A DNA stretch of 64,000 nt from an uncultured Methanoregulaceae archaeon (lineage in GTDB: Archaea; Halobacteriota; Methanomicrobia; Methanomicrobiales; Methanospirillaceae). Within the stretch, counting starts at the first letter, position 1. Every line of letters begins with the position of its first letter. The stretch spans positions 192,001 through 256,000 of the forward strand of contig CAWJAX010000005.1 of NCBI GenBank assembly GCA_963841015.1. Reading direction: 5' to 3'. Of this stretch, positions 19,425 to 63,166 are shown piece after piece. Made by a program: the position numbers and the translations under genes. Below the pieces are notes generated by a model. The model was not told the origin of the DNA. It made no database searches and was given only the letters and a program-made list of their open reading frames with translations.

Positions 19425-22400
19425 ATGAGAGTAAAACCTGGCATTTTACTAATCATTGGTTTGCTGTTCCTGGCGGGAACCGTTACGGCAGTCGGGATTC
19501 CGGATACCCTGACTGTTACTACGGACAAAGCCTGGATCATAGCCAATAATGTGGATCAATCCACTATCATCGTAAAAGTAACGAATACAACCTCGGATCC
19601 TGGTCCTGTACCAGGGATAATCGTAAACCTTGAAGTTGATCCGTTATATGGAAACATCAGTCCCATACAAGTCACCACAAATATATCGGGAATGGCTTCA
19701 AGCACCTTCAAAGTGAGCACCAAGAGTGGTGCAGCACAAATAAATGCATCCATACCCGCGGGGGTTTCTGGTTCCACAATGCAGAATATTGATCATAACA
19801 GTGCCTATTTTGCAGATTTTACGCATCCGATCAATGGAACCGTTGCATCCGAAGTTCCATTTAATGTATCACTTACTGACCAATACCGGAATCCTGTGGA
19901 TAATCGAAGAGGCAACCATATAATAAAACTCCACGTTCATGGTCCTTTCCCGGATGACTGCGGTTTTGCTGAAGCCGGCTATGCACATGATATTTCCCCC
20001 ACGCTTGATGCAAACGGGAACACCACAGTAAATATCAAATTAACCTCTAAAATAGGTGACAACAACGTTGCGATGGACGCATATGAGAGTATCCCGAACC
20101 AACTCGAATGGATCTCTGCCGAGGCAATTGGCAAACCGTTTTCGATGACGCAGGTTATTTCACCTTCGGGATCTCCCCCGACGCTTCCCGCAGACGGGGT
20201 CAGTTATTTCACGATAATTTATAATTTGTTTGATGAATTCGGGAATCCAACGAACAAACAATTTATCTGGGTCAATACCTCCATCCCGGGGGAGGAACAA
20301 CAGTTCCTGTCAAACAATGTGGGTCAGGTAACGGTACAATATGGTCCGAGGTCTTCAATAGGTGAAATTGACATCATTGCAACATCAGTTGCAAATTCGA
20401 CACTTACCTTGACGCAAAGAGTAAAATTCAAGCACACGGGTGCGGAGATCATATCCCTTACCGCAAATCCTGATACTATGCCAAGTCAGGATGCCAATCC
20501 ACTATTTACATCAAATATTATCGCAACGGTTGCGGATATTTCGGGAAATGCAGTTCCCGGGGAAACGGTAGACTTTATTATAGAAAATATAACCTACGAT
20601 GCATCATATAACGTGACGGCAGATCCCAGTCTTTTAAGTTCAAGCGCTATCACCGACGTATATGGACGGGCCTTGGTCCAATTCAGACCCGGGAACTTTA
20701 CAGCAGTTGGCAACCCCGGTTACAATGCAACGGCAACCGGGCATTGTATGATGAATGCAACGTGGAAAAATTCAACAAAAAAAGTTCCCGTCACCTGGAA
20801 GAATTATCCTTATCTGAGTCTGTCAACATCGGTAAATCCCCATACTGTTGAGATAAACAAAACTATTGATGTTACCATTGAGTTCAGAGGTGACGGGTTC
20901 GCATTGCAGCCCACACCCATCGATGTGGTCATGGTCATAGACAAATCGGGCAGTATGGAGAACTATAATATAGGCGGCATTACCCGGATGCAGGCAGCGA
21001 AAAATGCAGCAAGTACGTTTGTCAACAAAATGAATGAAGGGACTGACCGTATCGGTGTTGTAACCTTTGATCGAGAAGACACAGTTATCACTGACGCTCC
21101 TTTGGGCGCCCCCTTCTTAACTATTACGAACACGATCAACGCGATTGATCCTAATAATGGAGGGACTGCAATGCGCCAGGGCTTCAAACAGGGTATCGAT
21201 CATATTAAGGCGAACGGCAGGCCGTCAGCAGTCCGGGCAGTTATTCTCATGACTGACGGGAACTGGAATTTAGGGGGAAGTCCCCTTGCTGTAGGAAGGG
21301 GCTATGATCTCAACACATGGGTCAGAGATAACCGGGATCGTGGCGTAGCCACCAAATATTATGGATTCTCCGGTTTGGCAACAGATTTTGAGGATCAGGA
21401 CTACCGCTGGTATTCTGGACTTGGGGGTAATCTATCTTCCAGTAGTGACACGGTCGTGAGGACACCTCGCAAGATTGATCCAGCAACAGGATTCGACGTG
21501 GCTTCTCGAACGACTGAATCGAGAAGCGGGGGATCCTACTATATTAATGGCCAGTTTACTCAGCAGAACATGTCGATCTACGCAAAGGACAATAATATAC
21601 GGTTGTACACCTTGTCGTTTGCCATGAACATCCCCGCAGACGAGCGTAATGCTCTTATTACTCTTGCAAATTCAACCGGGGGATTCTACCGGCATGCTCC
21701 CACCCAGGCCGATTTAGAAGCATTCTATACAGAAATCGCCGGAGACCTGAAAGATACCGCTGGTGTAAACGCCACCATGACGGCAGATTTCGATAAGATT
21801 AATGTCACGGGTTTTGAAATGGATGGAGACCAGGTATACGACTATGTATACCATCCAACGGAATCGACAAAGATCCGATGGCAGGATGGGATAACAAATG
21901 TGTCTGATCAATCCGCCGATTGGCTTGCAGATAGTAAACTGGACTTCAACATCGGAACAATAAAAGTAGGTCAATACTGGAATGCGACATTCCGGCTGAA
22001 GGTCAAACAGGGTGGCTTGATTGATGTATTCGGCAATCATTCAACGGTATCTTTCAATGGGGGGGCAGAGAACCTGTATCTTCCTCAAACATTCATCACA
22101 GTAATACCCAACCTTTCGGTCACGAATATTACCATGAAAACAATAACTCTCGACAATCTGATGTGTACCGAGACCGGGGAGATCAAGGCACTCTTTCCGG
22201 TACAATGGAACACAAACTATACAGGAAACAAGACCCTCACGGAAAAGGTCTATTACCGTATTGATAATAAGGGACCCTGGGTTCAATTCGACATAAAAAC
22301 ACACCCCTATGATCCACTTACCATGGAATATGTGAATTATGCACAACTCGATGTGACAAAACTCCCATGGGGAAACTACACGATTCAGGTACGTGCAACT

Positions 22401-22556
22401 GCCTCCGATGCGCCTGATGCAACAGCTGAAACCGTCAGTAAAACGGTAGGGGGACGAGGGAAAACGTTTATTAAACTTGAAGCTCCCCCGTTCCTGGACG
22501 ATACGCAGTTCTTCAATCAAAATCCGTGGGGGATTGTGGATAGCAGGAGCATTTAA
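19425..22556 (+). CDS. Large secreted Ig-like (invasin/Big_1-type) plus vWA domain protein, probable adhesin
   Basis: Signal peptide, Ig-like repeats (ATVADISGNAVPGETVDF), vWA with MIDAS DKSGSM, ILMTDG, NSTGGFY; many N-x-S/T sequons. Confidence 0.85.
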   Translation: MRVKPGILLIIGLLFLAGTVTAVGIPDTLTVTTDKAWIIANNVDQSTIIVKVTNTTSDPGPVPGIIVNLEVDPLYGNISPIQVTTNISGMASSTFKVSTKSGAAQINASIPAGVSGSTMQNIDHNSAYFADFTHPINGTVASEVPFNVSLTDQYRNPVDNRRGNHIIKLHVHGPFPDDCGFAEAGYAHDISPTLDANGNTTVNIKLTSKIGDNNVAMDAYESIPNQLEWISAEAIGKPFSMTQVISPSGSPPTLPADGVSYFTIIYNLFDEFGNPTNKQFIWVNTSIPGEEQQFLSNNVGQVTVQYGPRSSIGEIDIIATSVANSTLTLTQRVKFKHTGAEIISLTANPDTMPSQDANPLFTSNIIATVADISGNAVPGETVDFIIENITYDASYNVTADPSLLSSSAITDVYGRALVQFRPGNFTAVGNPGYNATATGHCMMNATWKNSTKKVPVTWKNYPYLSLSTSVNPHTVEINKTIDVTIEFRGDGFALQPTPIDVVMVIDKSGSMENYNIGGITRMQAAKNAASTFVNKMNEGTDRIGVVTFDREDTVITDAPLGAPFLTITNTINAIDPNNGGTAMRQGFKQGIDHIKANGRPSAVRAVILMTDGNWNLGGSPLAVGRGYDLNTWVRDNRDRGVATKYYGFSGLATDFEDQDYRWYSGLGGNLSSSSDTVVRTPRKIDPATGFDVASRTTESRSGGSYYINGQFTQQNMSIYAKDNNIRLYTLSFAMNIPADERNALITLANSTGGFYRHAPTQADLEAFYTEIAGDLKDTAGVNATMTADFDKINVTGFEMDGDQVYDYVYHPTESTKIRWQDGITNVSDQSADWLADSKLDFNIGTIKVGQYWNATFRLKVKQGGLIDVFGNHSTVSFNGGAENLYLPQTFITVIPNLSVTNITMKTITLDNLMCTETGEIKALFPVQWNTNYTGNKTLTEKVYYRIDNKGPWVQFDIKTHPYDPLTMEYVNYAQLDVTKLPWGNYTIQVRATASDAPDATAETVSKTVGGRGKTFIKLEAPPFLDDTQFFNQNPWGIVDSRSI

Positions 22557-22770: not shown

Positions 22771-23436
22771 ATGAAAATGATGAAAGATATTTCCCCAAAC
22801 GACAGGCCACGTGAGAAGATTGCAAAAAAAGGCGCCTCTGCCCTTTCAGACACTGAATTGATCGAGGCAATCATTGGGCGGGGAACAAAAAACAAAGACG
22901 TCCGCATGCTTGCAAAAGAAATCTGCGGGCTTATCGAGATACACAGGGAAAAAATCAGGTATGATGATCTGGCAGCAATACAGGGAATCGGACCTACTAA
23001 AGCGTCGCAGATCACGGCATGCTTTGAACTCTCGCGGAGATATTCCCCGAATGGAGGAGCGAATACGCATGTGACAAAACCCGAAGATATCCTCCCCCAT
23101 GTTGCTTATTTAAAAGAAAAACGGCAGGAGCATTTCATCTGTATCACCCTCAATGGCGCCGGTGAGGTTCTCGGTAATAGAACAATAACCCTGGGTCTGC
23201 TCAACCACAGCCTTGTCCATCCGCGGGAGGTGTTTGCCGATGCAATCACGGACAGGGCCGCATCTATCATCTGCGTTCACAATCACCCTTCGGGTTCCCT
23301 TGATCCCAGCCCACAGGACATTGCGATCACAACTCAGCTGAAAGAAGCGGGAGTGCTTCTCGGCATCCAGCTGATTGATCATATCATTGTCACAAAAACC
23401 GGTTACCTGAGCATGAAAGAGCGTGGTCTGATTTAA
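22771..23436 (+). CDS. radC: RadC family JAB/MPN protein
   Basis: RPREK, LSDTEL, HhH GIGPTKA, VHPREVF, HNHPSG, LIDHIIV. Confidence 0.95.
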   Translation: MKMMKDISPNDRPREKIAKKGASALSDTELIEAIIGRGTKNKDVRMLAKEICGLIEIHREKIRYDDLAAIQGIGPTKASQITACFELSRRYSPNGGANTHVTKPEDILPHVAYLKEKRQEHFICITLNGAGEVLGNRTITLGLLNHSLVHPREVFADAITDRAASIICVHNHPSGSLDPSPQDIAITTQLKEAGVLLGIQLIDHIIVTKTGYLSMKERGLI

Positions 23437-23692: not shown

Positions 23693-23710
23693 AGACAAAT
23701 ATTTATATAA
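23693..23710 (+). promoter_or_regulatory. Putative TATA box of the tasA-like/sipW operon
   Basis: TTTATATA at 23702-23709 with purine-rich upstream bases, about 100 nt before ATG 23811. Confidence 0.5.
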
Positions 23711-23810: not shown

Positions 23811-24488
23811 ATGAGTACGAAAAAAGTTCTCCTAATCAGCATCATGCTGATAGCACTGACTGCACTCCTGACAGGTGTTGGAACAATGGCATATTTCAGT
23901 TCAACACAAACAAGCGGACCAAACCTGCTCAGCACCGGAAGCATTTCAATTAATGTAAATGGTCAGGATCCCTGGTCAGGCACCTTCAACGCAACGCTTG
24001 CAGATGTGAAACCCGGATTAAAGCGTTGGGGAAATGTTACCTTGCAGAACACCGGGCAGAATCAGGCTGATCTCTGGTTGAATACCATAAATGTTGTTAC
24101 CGACAACGGATCAAATACTTCTGCTGAAATTCTGGAGCCCTACGCCTTTGATATCGATGGGGTAATCCGGTATGATTTGTATAATAACACGGGTTCGGGT
24201 CTTCAGCCAATAATCGTGGATACTGATGATTATACAATCAGCACGGGTTCCCATAATTTAACCGGCGCACTTCAGACCACGGCTGTGAAAAATCAATGGA
24301 TTTACCTTGGTAACATTCCCTCCGGAGCAACGTGGCAGATTAACCAGAGTTATATGATGGACGGGAATGTCACCAACTGGGCACAGACGGATAATATGAC
24401 GTTTAACGTTGTATTTTATGCCCAACAAAGCCAGGGCAATCCCCAGCCGGCAGCTCCGTCACCAGAACTGCCCGGACACGGAAGATAA
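23811..24488 (+). CDS. TasA/camelysin-like fibre subunit with SipW-class signal peptide
   Basis: MSTKK-hydrophobic-GVGTMA|YFS..N..STGSI resembles TasA GGGTWA|AF..; TasA-fold motifs VKPG, VTLQNTG, NWAQTDNMTFNVVFYAQQ; directly upstream of a SipW-type peptidase. Confidence 0.85.
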   Translation: MSTKKVLLISIMLIALTALLTGVGTMAYFSSTQTSGPNLLSTGSISINVNGQDPWSGTFNATLADVKPGLKRWGNVTLQNTGQNQADLWLNTINVVTDNGSNTSAEILEPYAFDIDGVIRYDLYNNTGSGLQPIIVDTDDYTISTGSHNLTGALQTTAVKNQWIYLGNIPSGATWQINQSYMMDGNVTNWAQTDNMTFNVVFYAQQSQGNPQPAAPSPELPGHGR

Positions 24489-24534: not shown

Positions 24535-25068
24535 GTGATTAAGGAGATGAATACGCAAAACCTGAGATTAGTTGAGCCTCAAATAAAAAAACTGGGGAGA
24601 ATCGCGGCAATTCTCATCCTTATTTTAATTATTGCAGGATCATTATTCACGATTTTTACCCCTTTTTTTGGCTGGAGGACTGAGGTCGTCATTTCAGGGA
24701 GTATGGAGCCTGCAATATCAACAGGAAGTGTCGTTATCGTCCGCCCGGTAATTCCTGATACTCTCCGAAAAGGAGATGTAATCATGTATTATTCTCCCGA
24801 TAAATCGAGCCTGACCACACATCGTGTATTTTATGTAGCATCTGAGCCCTCACTCCAGTTCATCACCAAAGGAGATGCCAACAATAATTCTGATGTGATT
24901 CCTGTCACGCCGGGTCAAGTCGTCGGAATAGTTGCATTCACTATACCGTATCTGGGTCTTCTTGCCCAGTTCATCAAAACACCATTTGGATTTACACTTT
25001 TCCTGCTGATCCCGGCAGTGATTCTTATCGGACGCGAGATGCTTGATCTTTGGAGAGAGATGGAATAA
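24535..25068 (+). CDS. sipW: SipW-type signal peptidase I (S26B)
   Basis: VISGSMEP (catalytic Ser), GDVI, TTHRV (His), ITKGDANN..D, IPYLG, N- and C-terminal TM helices. Confidence 0.92.
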   Translation: MIKEMNTQNLRLVEPQIKKLGRIAAILILILIIAGSLFTIFTPFFGWRTEVVISGSMEPAISTGSVVIVRPVIPDTLRKGDVIMYYSPDKSSLTTHRVFYVASEPSLQFITKGDANNNSDVIPVTPGQVVGIVAFTIPYLGLLAQFIKTPFGFTLFLLIPAVILIGREMLDLWREME

Positions 25069-25091: not shown

Positions 25092-26456
25092 ATGAAAAAA
25101 ACAACCATCGTAATAATCGTTTTAACTCTCGTGGTAATTTCTCTCAGCACCTTTGGTACGACACATGCACATTTCACCTCCGGGCAGGTTACAGGTCCGC
25201 ATCTTATTTCCACATGGCAATCCTATTTTTGGATCCAGACCAGTCAGGCTGACTATCAGATGGGGATATTAGAGAATGTTGATATAATATCCAGTCCTGG
25301 TAACGTGAAACTGGTCATGAGAAATATATCTCCGACAATGTATGCAACATTCGGAAGCGGATCAACTACTTTTCAGCAGTATAATGTTTCTAACAACACC
25401 TGGAACTCGCTGGCAAATACACTTGGCAGTATAAGCAACGGAGGGGCTGTTGCAAAAGATAATCTTAGTTACCTTTACGCGTTACGGGGAGGAGGTACTA
25501 CAAATTTTTACCGGTACTCAATCCCGTTCAATAACTGGTCATCCATGACCGTAACTCCCGCCACCATTAATTCCGGTGGCGCTTTGGTATATACCGGCGG
25601 AAATTACCTTTACGCGTTACGGGGGGGCGGACAGCGTAACTTATACCGGTATTCAATGCCCTTCAATAACTGGTCATCCATGACCGCAACTCCCGCCACC
25701 ATTAATTCCGGTGGCGCTTTGGTATATACCGGCGGAAATTACCTTTACGCGTTACGGGGGGGCGGACAGCGTAACTTATACCGGTATTCAATGCCCTTCA
25801 ATAACTGGTCATCCATGACCGTAACTCCCGCCACCATTAATTCCGGTGGCGCTTTGGTATATACCGGCGGAAATTACCTTTACGCGTTACGGGGAGGAGG
25901 TACTACAAATTTTTACCGGTACTCAATCCCGTTCAATAACTGGTCTTCCATGGCCGCAACTCCCGGTCCTGTAAATGCTGGCGGGGCTCTGGTATCTGAT
26001 AACGGGAACAATATTTATGCTTTTAACGGTTCTTCGCAAAAATTCTGGCTCTATAATATTTCCACAAACACCTGGAACGATACTCTTGTTTCTGATCCCC
26101 CCGGTCTGGCAGGCTGGGGGGGCAGTCTTTCGTACCGTCCTGGTTCTTCCGGATATCTGCCACTTGGTAAACTTACTTCAGCCGTATATGATACCGGGAA
26201 TTCTGGTTCACGATGGGACTCCCTTTCCTGGGATAGCACACTTGTTGCAGGAACAAATGTCACGTTTGAGGTGCGAGCGTCCGATATTCCTTATACCAGC
26301 ACAGATTTATTACCTGCATGGCAGCAATCCGGCTGGCCATCACCAGTTAATTCAGGATTACCAACCGGAAGGTACATTCAATGGCGTGCAACCCTCTTCA
26401 CGACAGATACATCAGGAACGCCAATTCTTAGTGAGGTGCGGGTATGGTACTCATAA
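25092..26456 (+). CDS. SipW-signal, Kelch-like beta-propeller protein (putative fibre tip adhesin)
   Basis: MKK-hydrophobic-GTTHA|HFTS signal; six YLYALRGG..Y..W blades; C-terminal beta domain (GTNVTFEVRASD..GRYIQWRATL..TPILSEV). Confidence 0.82.
   Translation: MKKTTIVIIVLTLVVISLSTFGTTHAHFTSGQVTGPHLISTWQSYFWIQTSQADYQMGILENVDIISSPGNVKLVMRNISPTMYATFGSGSTTFQQYNVSNNTWNSLANTLGSISNGGAVAKDNLSYLYALRGGGTTNFYRYSIPFNNWSSMTVTPATINSGGALVYTGGNYLYALRGGGQRNLYRYSMPFNNWSSMTATPATINSGGALVYTGGNYLYALRGGGQRNLYRYSMPFNNWSSMTVTPATINSGGALVYTGGNYLYALRGGGTTNFYRYSIPFNNWSSMAATPGPVNAGGALVSDNGNNIYAFNGSSQKFWLYNISTNTWNDTLVSDPPGLAGWGGSLSYRPGSSGYLPLGKLTSAVYDTGNSGSRWDSLSWDSTLVAGTNVTFEVRASDIPYTSTDLLPAWQQSGWPSPVNSGLPTGRYIQWRATLFTTDTSGTPILSEVRVWYS
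25469..25965 (+). repeat. Intragenic tandem repeat, 135 bp x about 3.7 copies
   Basis: Unit starts TTACCTTTACGCGTTACGGGG at 25469, 25604, 25739 and 25874; near-identical at nucleotide level. Confidence 0.97.
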
Positions 26457-26517: not shown

Positions 26518-27336
26518 TTGACGATTTCAGGGATTACTTACCGGAATTCATTATTCCCTCTGGCGGGATTCATTTTCATCCTTCTCTTTCTCCTGCCTGT
26601 ACCTGTTTTTGCACAGGGCCCCGTTGACCTCACTTTCGAAGAAACGGGTGTTTTCCCCTGGAGTATCACGGGAATTCTACCAGGAGATCATGGTTCTACC
26701 TTTATCGATCTTCACAATAACGGAACCGAGAGTGGGATTGTCTATATCTGGGTTGACAATATCAGCACTACCGATCGATACGGTAATCCGGGAGGCGGGC
26801 TGGCAAATTATATGTACTTCAATGTCTCAAATCATGACCTTACCAGCACAATAAATCTTCCAGCCCGAATCAATTCCTTTCCAAAAGCTCCCCTCCTCGA
26901 GGACCATTTCATCATTATCGATTCATTCAAACCCGGAGATACCATCAGACTTAACTGGACATGGGAATTTGAAGAAACGGGACAACCACAGAATGATGCA
27001 CAGAATAATACTCTTCACTTCAACATCTCATACACGCTGGTGAATCTGACCGCCCCCGTGATACCAACGCCAGTACCAACGGGTATCCAACCTGGTTTGC
27101 CGGGGGGAACAGGAATGAATCCCCAAAATCCTTCCCTGTTCGAGCCCGGAGGGATCCCGGGATTAAATCCTGCTCAACGTCCCCAACTCAGAGCACCAAT
27201 TGAAGAGCCGCCTGAAATGGAGATCGAGCAACCGGAACTCCCTGAATACGGATGCATTATGGCGATAGGGCTCATCGCCATAATTTTCATAATCTCCGTT
27301 CTGGTGCTCTGGAAACGGAAAAAAGACAGGAAATAA
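26518..27336 (+). CDS. TasA-fold-like protein with Pro-rich linker and C-terminal TM anchor (putative fibre base)
   Basis: TTG start after GAGGGGGGT; signal ending VFA|QG; ILPGD, IDLHNNG, FKPGDT, NDAQNNTLHFNISY; TM plus KRKKDRK. Confidence 0.72.
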   Translation: MTISGITYRNSLFPLAGFIFILLFLLPVPVFAQGPVDLTFEETGVFPWSITGILPGDHGSTFIDLHNNGTESGIVYIWVDNISTTDRYGNPGGGLANYMYFNVSNHDLTSTINLPARINSFPKAPLLEDHFIIIDSFKPGDTIRLNWTWEFEETGQPQNDAQNNTLHFNISYTLVNLTAPVIPTPVPTGIQPGLPGGTGMNPQNPSLFEPGGIPGLNPAQRPQLRAPIEEPPEMEIEQPELPEYGCIMAIGLIAIIFIISVLVLWKRKKDRK

Positions 27337-27539: not shown

Positions 27540-29861
27540 ATGAAACTGTTTGATTCTTCACGGCAGGACAAGCCCGTTTTTTTCCCTTGTTTTACATTTG
27601 TGTTTTTCATTCAGATCTTCTTTATTCTCCTGCTTTTACTATTCAACCCGGTTCATGCAGCTACCGATACTACGCCGGGATCAGCTCCTCAACTGGGATG
27701 GATGAATACATTCGAACAACCTGTTGAAGGAGGGAAATATTCAATCATTGCTGTAAGTGATGGGGGATCCGTGGCCATAGGAAATAGCAAATCCCTTCCA
27801 GGAAGTTCCAGTCTATACATCCTCAAAACTGATACAAATGGAAATAAAGTGTGGGAATGGACCGATGCTGGAAGTACCTACGAGGGATATTCTATTATTG
27901 AAACACGGGATAAAGGGTACATTATCGCCGGGAGTTCCAATACTACCACCACCAACGGGATTATCCTCAGGAAACTTGATCAGGCCGGAAAAATGACATG
28001 GACACAGCTATTCAATAAAGGTGAATATTACTTCGGTAATTATGTCAGTCCAACACGTGACGGTGGATTCATCGTTGCCGGGTCCGTGTTGAGGAATGAC
28101 ACTTCTCAATCATCACTCTGGGATGGTTACACTCTCAAAACCGATGCTGAAGGGAGAGAACAGTGGACCGGTTTTTTTAAGGGTGAAAAAAATGATTTTG
28201 CCAGGTTTATCCGCCAGACTGAAGATGGAGGGTACATAGTTGCCGGAATTACCGAAAGCTATGGCATTAACGGTGTTCCCTCTACGTACCTGCACAAAAT
28301 GAATGAATTTGGTAATAAAGAATGGTTTACTACCTATGGGACCGGGCCGGGGGATGAAAAACTATCGGTCATTCAAACGCCCGATGGAGGATATATCATC
28401 ATGGGAATCTCCCTGCCCGTTGCCATCAATCAAGGATATAAGGATCTTTTCCTGGTCAGAACCGATGATCATGGAAAAGAACTGTGGAGAAAAAATATTC
28501 CCGTGAGGGGGAGAGCCACAGGTAACATCCTTATCCCGGCGGCTGAAGGTGTAACCGTTATTGCAGGTTCTTACCAGGGATCTGAACGAGAAAAAACCGG
28601 CGAGATAATCATACTGGACATTGACCTGAACGGCAACGAGAAGCAGAACCGGACATTCAGTATTGGAAAATCTATCGATATTCAGGATATTGCGGTTGTC
28701 CCGGGTGAGGGATATTTCGTTACCGGTTTAGTATCCGGACCAGGAGGCCTTGAAAAAAAAGGGTTTACCATTATTAAGATACTCGATACCCCTTACCGCA
28801 CTGAAGTAACCGTAAAAAACTCATTCGAACTCACGGTAATAACAAAAGATGCTAAAACGGGGACATTTATTGGAGGGGCTCATGTATATCTCGATGGTAG
28901 GTCTACCGGAAGCACCTCGGAGCAGGATGGAAAGCAGATTCTCCGTGATGTTGAGAAGGGCTCACATACTATCAGGGTGGCAAAATCAGGATATGAAGAG
29001 ATTACCCGACCAGTAGATATTACTGAAAAGAAGCAGATCACCTTCACTCTCAACCGATCAAACGTGATACCGGTACAAATCCACGGATCAACAGATGAAA
29101 AGATCGATATTGTTTTTGTGCCTTCAAAAACTTCATTTAACTGTAATTCCAAAACAAAAATCCAGACCGACGCATATACCGGTAATCAGCAACGATTCAT
29201 CCAAGATGTAAACAATAAAATTGATGTATTTTTAACATTGGATTCCCTGACATCCGGCTCGGTGGGTTTGCCCGGGGATTTCAGGGAGCGTTTCAATTTT
29301 TATTACTACTGGGATACCGGAAGTTTCGCTGATGCTTTCGACGGTTGTGCTGGAACACTTCCCAATGAATTCTGGAATGATGCACCATTCACTGATGTGG
29401 CAATTATCATGTACCCATCCTATGAGGGTCGCTATTCCGGCTCTCCCTGTGAACCAATTGGGTGTGCAAACGGCCTGGGGCCCGGATCAGGATCCTGGCT
29501 GAAAGCACCAGCTGATTCTCCGATGATTTTTCTGCATGAGAGCGGGCATGTGGTCTTTGGTCTGATTGATACCTATTGCGGGGATACCTATTACGTGGAA
29601 AATTCTCCTTTTCCCAATGTCTGGAGTTCTGAGTCCTCATGCAAAAAAAAAGCCGAGCAGGAACGCTGGGATAGCACAAGCTGCCGGCAAATTTTAAAAC
29701 CTCCCAGCAGCCGTCCGATAGATCCCTGTGTGAAAAATTTCTGGAGAGCGGATACAGATCCCGATATCATGGGCAGCGGGGCATATTCCGGCAGGTTCGG
29801 CAATGCATCGACATCACGTATCCGCCATATTTTTGATACGATCAACAGGTGGCAGAAATGA
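27540..29861 (+). CDS. Secreted beta-propeller + PEGA-like + M64-like zinc metallopeptidase
   Basis: Signal peptide; repeated T.DGGYIIAG blades; AHVYLDG..HTIRVAKSGYE; KIDIVFV, FNFYY, FLHESGHVVFGLIDTY. Confidence 0.78.
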   Translation: MKLFDSSRQDKPVFFPCFTFVFFIQIFFILLLLLFNPVHAATDTTPGSAPQLGWMNTFEQPVEGGKYSIIAVSDGGSVAIGNSKSLPGSSSLYILKTDTNGNKVWEWTDAGSTYEGYSIIETRDKGYIIAGSSNTTTTNGIILRKLDQAGKMTWTQLFNKGEYYFGNYVSPTRDGGFIVAGSVLRNDTSQSSLWDGYTLKTDAEGREQWTGFFKGEKNDFARFIRQTEDGGYIVAGITESYGINGVPSTYLHKMNEFGNKEWFTTYGTGPGDEKLSVIQTPDGGYIIMGISLPVAINQGYKDLFLVRTDDHGKELWRKNIPVRGRATGNILIPAAEGVTVIAGSYQGSEREKTGEIIILDIDLNGNEKQNRTFSIGKSIDIQDIAVVPGEGYFVTGLVSGPGGLEKKGFTIIKILDTPYRTEVTVKNSFELTVITKDAKTGTFIGGAHVYLDGRSTGSTSEQDGKQILRDVEKGSHTIRVAKSGYEEITRPVDITEKKQITFTLNRSNVIPVQIHGSTDEKIDIVFVPSKTSFNCNSKTKIQTDAYTGNQQRFIQDVNNKIDVFLTLDSLTSGSVGLPGDFRERFNFYYYWDTGSFADAFDGCAGTLPNEFWNDAPFTDVAIIMYPSYEGRYSGSPCEPIGCANGLGPGSGSWLKAPADSPMIFLHESGHVVFGLIDTYCGDTYYVENSPFPNVWSSESSCKKKAEQERWDSTSCRQILKPPSSRPIDPCVKNFWRADTDPDIMGSGAYSGRFGNASTSRIRHIFDTINRWQK

Positions 29862-30454
29862 AGCGTTTCGTTTTCGCAGGTCTGATTTTTCTGGTGCTCC
29901 TGCAGGGCATCTGGTTTGCCTCCGCAAATGACTCGCCCGATTATTCTAAGATTGTTGTTGTCCACCTCAACATAAATAAAAGCAGTATCACAGAAAAGTC
30001 AGTTGAGATGCGCTACGGCCACCCCCCAAATATCGAAGGTAGAAGCGGGGACTTTAAAGGGACGCTGAAATCAACTGATGGTTCCACGATCCGGGAATTT
30101 ACTCTTTGGGATCCCCGCTATCAGCTGGGAGATGTCCTTGAAAAAGACAATGAATCTTCCGATTATCTTTCCGGGTACCTGACATATTCTGATAATGCAG
30201 ATCTTGTCCTCATACTTCCGTACTATGAAAACCAGATGACGTTTGAGTTGCATGACAAAAAGACCGGCACTCTGTTAAAAAAAGTGAACATGTCACAGGC
30301 AATAACAAAATTTCAATCAAACTATCCCAAAGATCCCGGAAGTGTTTCTGTATTACCTATCCAATTCGATAAATCCGTTATATATGTGATAACCGGAGTT
30401 GTGATTTCGATACTTATCATCGGAATGATTCTCTCAATGGTTCGAAAAAAATGA
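29858..30454 (+). CDS. Membrane-anchored hypothetical protein coupled to the peptidase
   Basis: ATGA overlap with the upstream stop; signal peptide, extracellular beta domain, C-terminal TM plus RKK. Confidence 0.8.
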   Translation: MKRFVFAGLIFLVLLQGIWFASANDSPDYSKIVVVHLNINKSSITEKSVEMRYGHPPNIEGRSGDFKGTLKSTDGSTIREFTLWDPRYQLGDVLEKDNESSDYLSGYLTYSDNADLVLILPYYENQMTFELHDKKTGTLLKKVNMSQAITKFQSNYPKDPGSVSVLPIQFDKSVIYVITGVVISILIIGMILSMVRKK

Positions 30455-62337: not shown

Positions 62338-63084
62338 CTAACGCTGTTTTTTTCTGTCCTTTTTCTGCGGTTTTTTCGTTTTGTCCTCCCGGGAGTGCAG
62401 ATAGAGTTCATGGAGTACCATGATGACTATGATGATGATAGTCACTTCAACAATATGGAGTGGGAGGTACCCGACCAGCGGGATGGTGAACAGTGCCTTT
62501 CCAATGATCCATTCATCCTTTACCGGCTCGATAACACCCAAACCCTGGTAAACTGCGACCTGATCAATATTTTTGTTATTATCCCCTTTTGTGATATATC
62601 CGCCGTGAGGTTGGTAATACTTTGAAATATTTTCAAGATCCAGTTGCAGGTATTTTGGCAGGTCTGCTGTGTCAGCTTTGACCATTGCCCGGTGGATAAT
62701 AGGATGTACACCTGATGAGATGAAGGGTATTGGAACCACAGGATTCTTTGCCCCGTTTGGCTGGTAAATAATCACATCCCCGTAATCCTCGAACTTTTTA
62801 TAGCCTGTTGTATTTCCCTGGACCCAGGTCTGTAATGTACCGAACCGGTCCTTCTGGACGACGACAACAAGATCTCCCACATTCATGTGAGGTACCATGC
62901 TCTCAGATTCGATAGTGACAACCGCAGGCCAGGTACCGCTGATTAAGAACAGGGTAAGTGCGATCCCGCCAACAACCGCCACGATCCAGATCAGATCGCG
63001 CGCCAGGGACACCCCCCAGTGATCACTTTCCCGGAATTTTGAGACCAGCGTGCGGATACCCCGTTTATTATCGTTATCAGCCAT
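62338..63084 (-). CDS. sec11: Signal peptidase I, archaeal Sec11 type
   Basis: WPAVVTIESESMVP, GDVIIY, PIIHRA, YITKGDNN, IPLVGY. Confidence 0.9.
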   Translation of the reverse strand: MADNDNKRGIRTLVSKFRESDHWGVSLARDLIWIVAVVGGIALTLFLISGTWPAVVTIESESMVPHMNVGDLVVVVQKDRFGTLQTWVQGNTTGYKKFEDYGDVIIYQPNGAKNPVVPIPFISSGVHPIIHRAMVKADTADLPKYLQLDLENISKYYQPHGGYITKGDNNKNIDQVAVYQGLGVIEPVKDEWIIGKALFTIPLVGYLPLHIVEVTIIIIVIMVLHELYLHSREDKTKKPQKKDRKKQR

Positions 63085-63166
63085 TTTTGCTCTCATTCTC
63101 TGATTTTTTATAATATGTTTAACCCTTCATAATTAACCATGTCGGATTATAAAATGCCGGAAGATT

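Follow-up and report, generated by a model that had tools for sequence, protein, structure and literature searches.

A putative TasA-type donor strand shared by a Kelch protein and a major subunit in a candidate fibre operon of a Methanoregulaceae archaeon

The stretch of DNA analysed here, called the window below, comprises 64,000 nucleotides of contig CAWJAX010000005.1 from an uncultured Methanoregulaceae archaeon. On its + strand lies a module of four genes encoding a TasA/camelysin-like major subunit (225 amino acids (aa), 23811-24488, with GTG 23787 as an alternative start), a SipW/archaeal-type signal peptidase I (173 aa from ATG 24547, 24547-25068, in an open reading frame (ORF) that opens at GTG 24535), a Kelch protein (454 aa, 25092-26456) and an anchor subunit (272 aa, 26518-27336, read from the TTG start at 26518 behind GAGGGGGG). 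It seems moderately probable that these genes specify a polar donor-strand fibre of the TasA type, built of a membrane anchor, n major subunits and a Kelch tip. A first-pass annotation of this DNA had noticed the similarity between the mature N-termini of the major subunit and the Kelch protein and had placed the latter at one end of a fibre. It had overlooked the peptidase gene, situated between the genes for these two proteins, as well as the fourth gene, which encodes a TasA-like anchor devoid of the strand. Nor had it recognised the motif as belonging to the known SipW-cognate class of signal peptides.

Translation of the window gives YFSSTQTSGPNLLST for 23892-23936, in the major subunit, and HFTSGQVTGPHLIST for 25170-25214, in the Kelch protein, whose reading frame begins at ATG 25092 (MKKTT...HA, followed by HFTS... 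after the predicted cut; 25092-25214). The 8 identities in 15 positions reported by the first-pass annotation are reproduced. Among the 77,144 stop-free 15-mers of the six frames, the Kelch segment is the sole one with at least 8 identities to that of the major subunit; the BLOSUM62 sum of the pair is 46, and the next best 15-mer has 7 identities and a sum of 22. BLASTP finds one significant segment between the complete proteins (residues 4-42 of the major subunit and 3-41 of the Kelch protein, 14/39 identical, pairwise expectation value (E) 8e-5), every other segment having an E of at least 0.04. The alignment of one family profile with the other extends over 43 columns, which cover the signal peptide and the motif only (93.7% probability, E 1.9e-7). 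The likeness spans the signal peptide and 15 mature residues, with nothing behind them in either comparison. The earlier statement that only the strand is shared is right for what follows the motif and too narrow for what precedes it, the signal peptides being alike as well. Cleavage is predicted after A27 of the major subunit and after A26 of the Kelch protein. These sites agree with the alignment of the major-family profile to mature TasA, in which the F of the motif falls on TasA residue 2 (F29 of the precursor).

The major subunit, with its signal peptide at residues 1-27 (23811-23891) and its donor-strand segment at residues 28-43 (23892-23939), matches Pfam Peptidase_M73 (PF12389, TasA/camelysin) over residues 4-210 with 31.8 bits against a cut-off of 22.5 (E 1.6e-7). 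It also matches NCBIfam TIGR04088, the SipW-dependent-type signal peptide, with 25.2 bits against a cut-off of 19, and its N-terminal 63 aa alone reach 27.2 bits. Its 671 relatives at E <=0.001 have the consensus N-terminus AYFSDTETSxGNTFTAGTIDL. A profile built from 60 relatives matches TasA both in the fibre (chain 8aur_A, E 8.5e-6) and as a monomer (5of1, E 2.4e-5), and the alignment lays the F-D-E...N-F-AG-TIDL segment of the family on residues 2-19 of mature TasA (8aur). As described for Bacillus subtilis, TasA residues 28-38 form the donor strand, F29, I32 and F39 are buried, and deletion of 28-38 breaks the fibres (PMC9674648, PMC10151520); nuclear magnetic resonance placed D31-S41 against A230-N220 of the next protomer (PMC10151520). 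The N-terminus of TapA resembles the TasA strand and TapA has been modelled as the donor of the first strand (PMC9674648). The residues just behind the TapA cleavage site are reported to matter, 14 of them being sufficient for function (PMC10151520). Judged by profile alignment, the segment shared by the two proteins of the window is homologous to the strand that experiments have identified as the donor in B. subtilis TasA, so that the similarity first noticed here would be the TapA/TasA relation found anew, in an archaeon.

The peptidase encoded between the two genes matches TIGR02228 with 106.9 bits against a cut-off of 51.85. It also matches the SipW model NF046067 at E 4e-32, yet stays under the cut-off of that model. 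It contains SGSMEP, THR and KGDAN stretches, the first two of which we take to bear the catalytic Ser and His. A search with this protein also retrieved a second signal peptidase I-like gene of 252 aa on the - strand (62338-63096). The latter probably encodes the general enzyme, and the cell would then have one general and one fibre-dedicated peptidase.

The Kelch protein begins with a signal peptide (residues 1-26, 25092-25169) that aligns with that of the major subunit, followed by the putative donor strand HFTSGQVTGPHLISTW (residues 27-42, 25170-25217). The N-terminal half of a split beta-sandwich base comes next (about residues 42-86, 25215-25349), with the signature W.QT.Q.DF.AG...VDT..SPG.V.L; the C-terminal half (residues 344-454, 26121-26456 with the stop codon) ends the protein. 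A six-bladed Kelch propeller (about residues 87-343, 25350-26120) is inserted between the halves, and its blades 2-5 are encoded by a tandem repeat of 135 bp in 3.7 copies with 92% matches (25469-25965). A monomer model computed from a 25-row alignment has a mean predicted local distance difference test score (pLDDT) of 89.4. It comprises a signal helix (residues 2-18), a coil (19-44, with pLDDT <50 at 22-34), a beta-sandwich formed by about 45-86 together with 345-453, and the propeller between the halves, mostly with pLDDT >90. The protein matches Pfam Kelch_6 (31 bits, cut-off 25.3), and the Foldseek matches of the propeller are designed Kelch proteins with six blades and Keap1 (target TM-scores about 0.8, about 290-300 columns aligned). 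The predicted fold is therefore consistent with the six blades proposed earlier. The model also indicates that the propeller is an insertion in a conserved base and not simply cargo behind the strand. The lack of similarity behind the motif, next to which the earlier reading had put its claim that this protein has no acceptor groove, is borne out by BLASTP and by the comparison of family profiles, in which the Kelch protein shows no TasA-like core.

The C-terminal half of the base (query residues 355-453) is the part matched in the majority of distant loci. A search of the ESM Atlas with residues 340-454 gave best scores of 0.88 and no named family. Membership in the TapA family was considered and rejected: TIGR04087 (YqxM_for_SipW) gives no match to the Kelch protein at E <=10, and the protein is a functional analogue of TapA at most.

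The anchor equals its orthologues in loci L001 and L003 in length (272 aa). Behind an ordinary signal peptide (about residues 1-32) comes a TasA-like beta-sandwich (residues 33-178, 26614-27051, pLDDT about 90); in the model, residues 179-244 form a disordered stalk rich in Pro, and the C-terminal residues 245-271 (27250-27330) a membrane helix with a basic tail. Its score against Peptidase_M73 is 17.2 bits, under the cut-off of 22.5, and its placement with TasA needed comparison of profiles and folds. Its family aligns with that of the major subunit (hhalign, 98.4%, E 5.4e-15), iterated jackhmmer searches merge the two families, with 107 ORFs common to both, and the best Foldseek matches of its model are the TasA structures 5of2 (E 3.3e-4) and 5of1 (E 5.2e-4), the fibre structure 8aur ranking tenth. 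In 27 aligned anchors a signal peptide ending in ..P.P..AQ is followed at once by VDL.LGG.G...W.I..IKPGD. The VDL...IKPGD part corresponds to TIDLAVNGQNPW...LKPGD of the major subunit, that is, to the first core strand (the TIDL strand). In the hhalign alignment the anchor cleavage region falls on residues 39-43 or so of the major subunit and the mature N-terminus of the anchor on about residue 42, directly after the strand; the 16-residue strand is thus exactly what the anchor is without. The C-terminal strand that pairs with the donor in TasA (pairing from PMC10151520), to which D194-A204 of the major subunit align, is kept in the conserved NDAQ..L.F.I.Y block of the anchor. A degenerate strand of its own was considered for the anchor and discarded, since in the alignments its mature chain starts at the position of the first core strand of the major subunit and not at that of the donor strand.

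The Kelch family has 214 relatives at E <=0.001, of which the best 120 were examined. Close relatives carry HA[HY]F[TN]S.Q[VI]TGPHL[IV]STW at the N-terminus; more distant ones, many from Dehalococcoidia, have the canonical F-D-E...N-F-AW form. In all of these relatives W.QTTQADF.AG...VDT..SPGDV.L comes next, and the protein closes with the conserved block RWD.L.WD...ITFEVRASD...GRY.QWRA; the base is kept throughout the family, whatever the insert. The earlier reading had been made to depend on conservation of the strand among orthologues, and the strand is indeed conserved. In the 50 of the best 120 homologues with a Methanoregulaceae-type strand, the strand is 81% identical to that of the window and the remainder of the protein 63%; for the 25 most divergent orthologues the values are 78% and 52%. 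Orthologues of 319, 364, 409 and 454 aa differ by steps of 45 aa, equivalent to whole blades. These differences in blade number may reflect real copy-number variation or the collapse of repeats in metagenome assembly.

Related loci were collected from one genome per species, which gave 80 loci, or 81 sources with the window. They come from Methanoregulaceae (the group closest to the window, with L002 and L003 at 85-88%), Methanomassiliicoccales, Methanofollis, a Methanophagales metagenome-assembled genome (MAG) and mostly from Dehalococcoidia/Chloroflexota. Searches with the proteins of the window found sipW in 54/81 sources, a major-like gene in 44/81 and an anchor-like gene in 40/81, commonly in the order major, sipW, tip, anchor. 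The N-termini of the tip proteins were sorted by eye: 51 sources have the motif, 10 have a complete N-terminus without it and 20 were left unjudged (contig ends, frameshifts, other architectures). In the 10 motif-less proteins an ordinary signal peptide leads directly into the W.QT block. A sipW gene accompanies 49/51 motif-bearing sources and 0/10 motif-less ones, and a TasA-like gene 50/51 and 0/10, respectively (co-occurrence Fisher 7e-10, which is no true probability because the loci are related). Anchor-type genes are present in 31/51 motif-bearing loci, 26 detected by script and 5 by eye (L036, L040, L048, L053 and L056, in which an internal D-L-V-D-D-E-G stretch mimics the motif pattern); a C-terminal hydrophobic helix is found in 25.

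The tip and major strands also vary together. Three false-hit 16-mers retrieved by the loose motif pattern were removed before the tests of co-variation and periodicity. Over 32 loci the mean within-locus identity between the two strands is 7.47/15, against 5.81 after shuffling, a value reached by 0/10,000 shuffles. When the 4 Methanoregulaceae sources are left out (28 loci), it is 7.36 against 6.68 and is reached by 1/10,000 shuffles. Common descent by itself would not be expected to give two ancient paralogous segments such an excess of identity within loci, although the relatedness of the loci inflates the count. The peaks of information content fall on positions 2, 4, 6, 8, 11, 13 and 15 in the tip and the major family alike, and of these 8 and 13 were free in the search pattern. 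The alternation of the peaks fits one face of a strand.

The heads of the tip family are interchangeable. Pfam domains were assigned to 48 tip proteins (that of the window, 19 and a further 28), with L003, L005 and L006 excluded because the gene is split. Kelch heads occur in 14/48, including that of L002, which has no Pfam hit and is 85% identical to the protein of the window. DUF2341 heads occur in 17/48 (5 of them also with Laminin_G_3), a PKD/Ig-like head and a DUF4322 head are found once each (1/48), and 11/48 proteins have a long insert without a Pfam match. The remaining 4/48 have no insert and measure 175-183 aa, one of them being cut at the N-terminus. Three of these mini tips (L030:2201-2746, L035:9992-10543 and L046:1430-1978; 181-183 aa) have the signal peptide, the strand and both halves of the sandwich, with no insert and no Pfam match. 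Two chloroflexotal loci, L007 (9932-11272, Kelch; labelled Dehalococcoidia) and L054 (9848-11497, DUF2341 and laminin-G-like; labelled Chloroflexia), have near-identical strands in both the tip protein and the major subunit, and by its sequences this pair looks like a recent head swap. The first-pass annotation had suggested looking for exchange of cargo behind a conserved strand. Such exchange is found, between Kelch, DUF2341 with or without a laminin-G-like domain, PKD/Ig or no head at all. The constant part consists of the strand and the split beta-sandwich, and the head is inserted into the sandwich.

The tip family also has members in a different setting. In a Saccharibacteria MAG (L068:7941-13185), four adjacent ORFs match the family, one of them by tblastn (query 355-454). 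The other three begin with ..FTLIE.. and a hydrophobic helix, a start that we assume to be type IV pilin-like, and the neighbourhood contains no TasA or sipW gene. The base or head module may therefore serve on a different type of pilus as well.

The favoured reading of the module as a polar fibre can be set out as a series of steps. The SipW-type peptidase of the operon would cut behind A27 in the major subunit and behind A26 in the Kelch protein, thereby freeing YFSSTQTSGPNLLSTG in the former and the strand named above in the latter. The Kelch strand would fill the groove of a major subunit. By analogy with TapA, this docking would displace the self-complementing segment of that first subunit and free its own strand for the next one, until the anchor receives the last free strand in its groove. 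The propeller would be displayed distally on the split beta-sandwich base and is probably a binding head. With a strand-only protein, a groove-only protein and one that has both strand and groove, the position of each in the fibre would be fixed: the first fits only at the end where a groove is open, the second only where a strand is left free. Membrane attachment of the groove-only anchor would then make the Kelch head the distal part. We infer that SipW does the cutting, that the major subunit polymerises, that the Kelch strand docks and that the head adheres, and the order of assembly is likewise our inference.

Several observations weigh against this reading. Polymerisation of the major subunit is suggested by a distant homology with TasA (E 8.5e-6), the lodging of the Kelch strand in its groove is likewise an expectation from homology, and the binding role of the propeller is putative. 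The Kelch protein, either whole or as its first 83 aa, gives no match to TIGR04088 even at E <=10; its link to this class is visible only against the major subunit itself and between the family profiles (93.7%, as above). A free segment beside the signal peptide is common in monomer models, and the coil predicted here is weak evidence of a free strand. No anchor-type gene was found in 20/51 motif-bearing loci, several of which have full flanks (L007, L031, L054, L063, L067 and L079), so the anchor is not obligatory. The shuffle tests and the table of 49/51 versus 0/10 take no account of the relatedness of the loci, and presence of the motif was decided by eye. Moreover, a motif that was a mere recognition site for the peptidase would be expected just as much to be conserved, to co-vary and to occur together with sipW. 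Prediction of a complex between major subunit residues 44-225 and Kelch residues 27-58 weighs neither for nor against docking: the scores were 0.00 and 0.01 against a mark of 0.32, for a short floppy partner and with controls not run.

It is conceivable, though rather unlikely, that the segment is an export tag only, that is, the recognition and cleavage context of a SipW-type peptidase, and that the Kelch protein is separately secreted or a matrix protein outside the fibre. The segment of the major subunit does fall in a described class of signal peptides (TIGR04088), and NCBIfam holds several unrelated SipW-dependent families (TIGR04087, 04089 and 04090, weak rows). Presence of sipW together with co-variation with the other substrate would also fit a common peptidase. 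However, conservation reaches about 16 residues past the cut and falls on alternate positions, and the segment is homologous to the proven donor strand of TasA, in a system where, according to PMC10151520, 14 residues behind the TapA cleavage site suffice. In addition, the anchor of the same operon has an ordinary signal peptide and is without exactly that segment, an arrangement predicted by strand donation and not by a tag.

A role as a transient nucleator, which would give the first strand and later be displaced or lost, making the Kelch protein an assembly factor rather than a lasting tip adhesin, is less likely still. A part for TapA after initiation was considered improbable (PMC10151520), and the head is variable or even missing in the four members of 175-183 aa, so that the strand and base are constant and possibly sufficient. 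Nevertheless, a strand lodged in a groove should remain there if nothing displaces it, the large and diverse lectin-like or propeller heads are hard to explain in a mere starter, and the analogous TafC has been modelled at the tip (PMC11821415). Finally, a chance likeness between two low-complexity signal-peptide regions, for which the abundance of S, T and G in both segments and the shortness of the shared stretch could be invoked, can be dismissed with near certainty, the match being unequalled in strength among the 15-mers of the window, in register behind the signal peptides, kept across the 50 orthologues and seen again in 32 loci of several phyla.

Taken as a donor-strand fibre, the module resembles the tapA-sipW-tasA operon of B. 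subtilis in having a TasA/camelysin major subunit with a SipW-cognate N-terminus and a dedicated SipW-type peptidase within the operon. Its minor protein, like TapA, resembles the major subunit only in the segment behind the cleavage site. However, this protein has a split beta-sandwich and a Kelch propeller in place of the Ig-like domain of TapA and is not a TapA homologue. The module differs further in its archaeal host and in the additional strand-less, membrane-anchored TasA-like subunit. With chaperone-usher pili (FimH/PapG) it would share a polar strand-complemented fibre and a two-part tip adhesin. The FimH tip has a groove without a strand, and a terminator is found at the base of the chaperone-usher pilus. 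Polarity would be reversed in the fibre of the window, with a strand-only tip and a groove-only base, and there is no chaperone, usher or outer membrane.

A comparable layout has been proposed, from mass spectrometry and AlphaFold models (PMC11821415), for the Tat-fimbriae (Tafi) of Haloarcula hispanica and Natrinema, with TafC as tip, TafE/TafA as shaft, TafF as anchor and TafD as peptidase (PMC11821415, PMC12337348). As described there, the Tafi tip has a lectin-like head and, at its N-terminus, a donor strand, the acceptor spans the membrane with its C-terminal part, and the system includes a major pilin and a signal peptidase I of its own. Laminin-G-like heads are likewise found among relatives of the Kelch protein. 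The likeness is nevertheless one of layout only: the profile of the major family retrieved no Tafi chain from the PDB at E <=1, which indicates a different pilin family, and export is of the Sec type with a SipW motif in the window, no twin-arginine motif being seen in the N-termini of the module, whereas Tafi use twin-arginine translocation (Tat). TafC moreover has a pilin-like domain of its own, none of which was found in the Kelch protein, and no adapter subunit was seen in the window.

The AbpA/AbpB and AbpX pili, as far as their published descriptions go, consist of TasA-superfamily subunits joined by strand donation. AbpB of the archaeal bundling pili (ABP) has been proposed as first-strand donor and adhesin (PMC9245690), and AbpX-type loci are said often to encode a peptidase, structurally varied predicted tip proteins and anchors (bioRxiv 10.64898/2026.01.04.697558). 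The relation is distant, AbpX chains matching the major-family profile at only E 0.047-0.059. The window has a dedicated peptidase, whereas the ABP loci have none (PMC9245690); the descriptions of these pili cited here mention neither the Kelch tip family nor its occurrence in Methanoregulaceae. According to the same source (January 2026), no archaeal TasA homologue of the Methanobacteriota cluster has been experimentally characterised. The collection of papers searched yielded no report joining SipW, Kelch and TasA, nor of TasA in Methanoregula or of SipW in a Dehalococcoid, although the supplements of the preprint may show similar loci. The principle of a first-strand-donating tip, with an acceptor held by an anchor and a dedicated peptidase, is not in itself new, having been put forward for TapA, AbpB, Tafi and AbpX loci. 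What the window adds is a methanogen operon of the canonical TasA type whose tip family is new and modular and whose anchored paralogue has no strand.

Upstream of the module on the + strand lie genes for a surface protein with VWA and Big_1 domains (1043 aa, 19425-22556) and for RadC (22771-23436), which also precede the module in the Methanoregulaceae loci L003, L004, L005, L006 and L014. A possible archaeal TATA box, TTTATATA, is located at 23702-23709, about 100 bases 5' of the ATG of the major subunit. Two further + strand genes follow the module (27540-30454), encoding proteins of 773 aa (27540-29861) and 201 aa (29849-30454). Each has relatives in 10/81 sources, and those seen are Methanoregulaceae loci, in which the genes come after the module. 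The 773-aa protein is secreted and has PEGA/CarboxypepD_reg-like domains; an HExxH stretch (29535-29549) may indicate a metalloprotease. The gene for the 201-aa protein overlaps that for the 773-aa protein, and its product has a hydrophobic C-terminal end. In several Methanoregulaceae MAGs the tip gene (L003, L005, L006 and L014) or the downstream 773-aa gene (L002, L004 and L005) is split into two or more ORFs, which could be due to assembly error or to decay.

A broader proposal can be made for the whole set of loci, more tentatively than for the fibre of the window. The strand and the split beta-sandwich would form a portable adaptor that plugs interchangeable heads onto the free-groove end of the fibre, with a groove-only membrane paralogue closing the other end and one dedicated peptidase serving the system. 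These parts would make up a complete pilus whose polarity is fixed with neither chaperone nor sortase, the arrangement would be common, across domains, to Methanoregulaceae, Methanomassiliicoccales and Dehalococcoidia, and the strands of tip and shaft would co-evolve in each locus. For specialists the module of the window is a neat extension of a known principle rather than a surprise. The three proteins, one with strand and groove, one with the strand only and one with the groove only, make a clean test case for the polarity, the start and the end of a TasA-type fibre, and the mini tips are good minimal subjects for the study of strand donation. The exchangeable heads suggest a natural route by which one fibre may be retargeted to different ligands. 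Surface fibres bear on the flocs, biofilms and partnerships of methanogen-related archaea.

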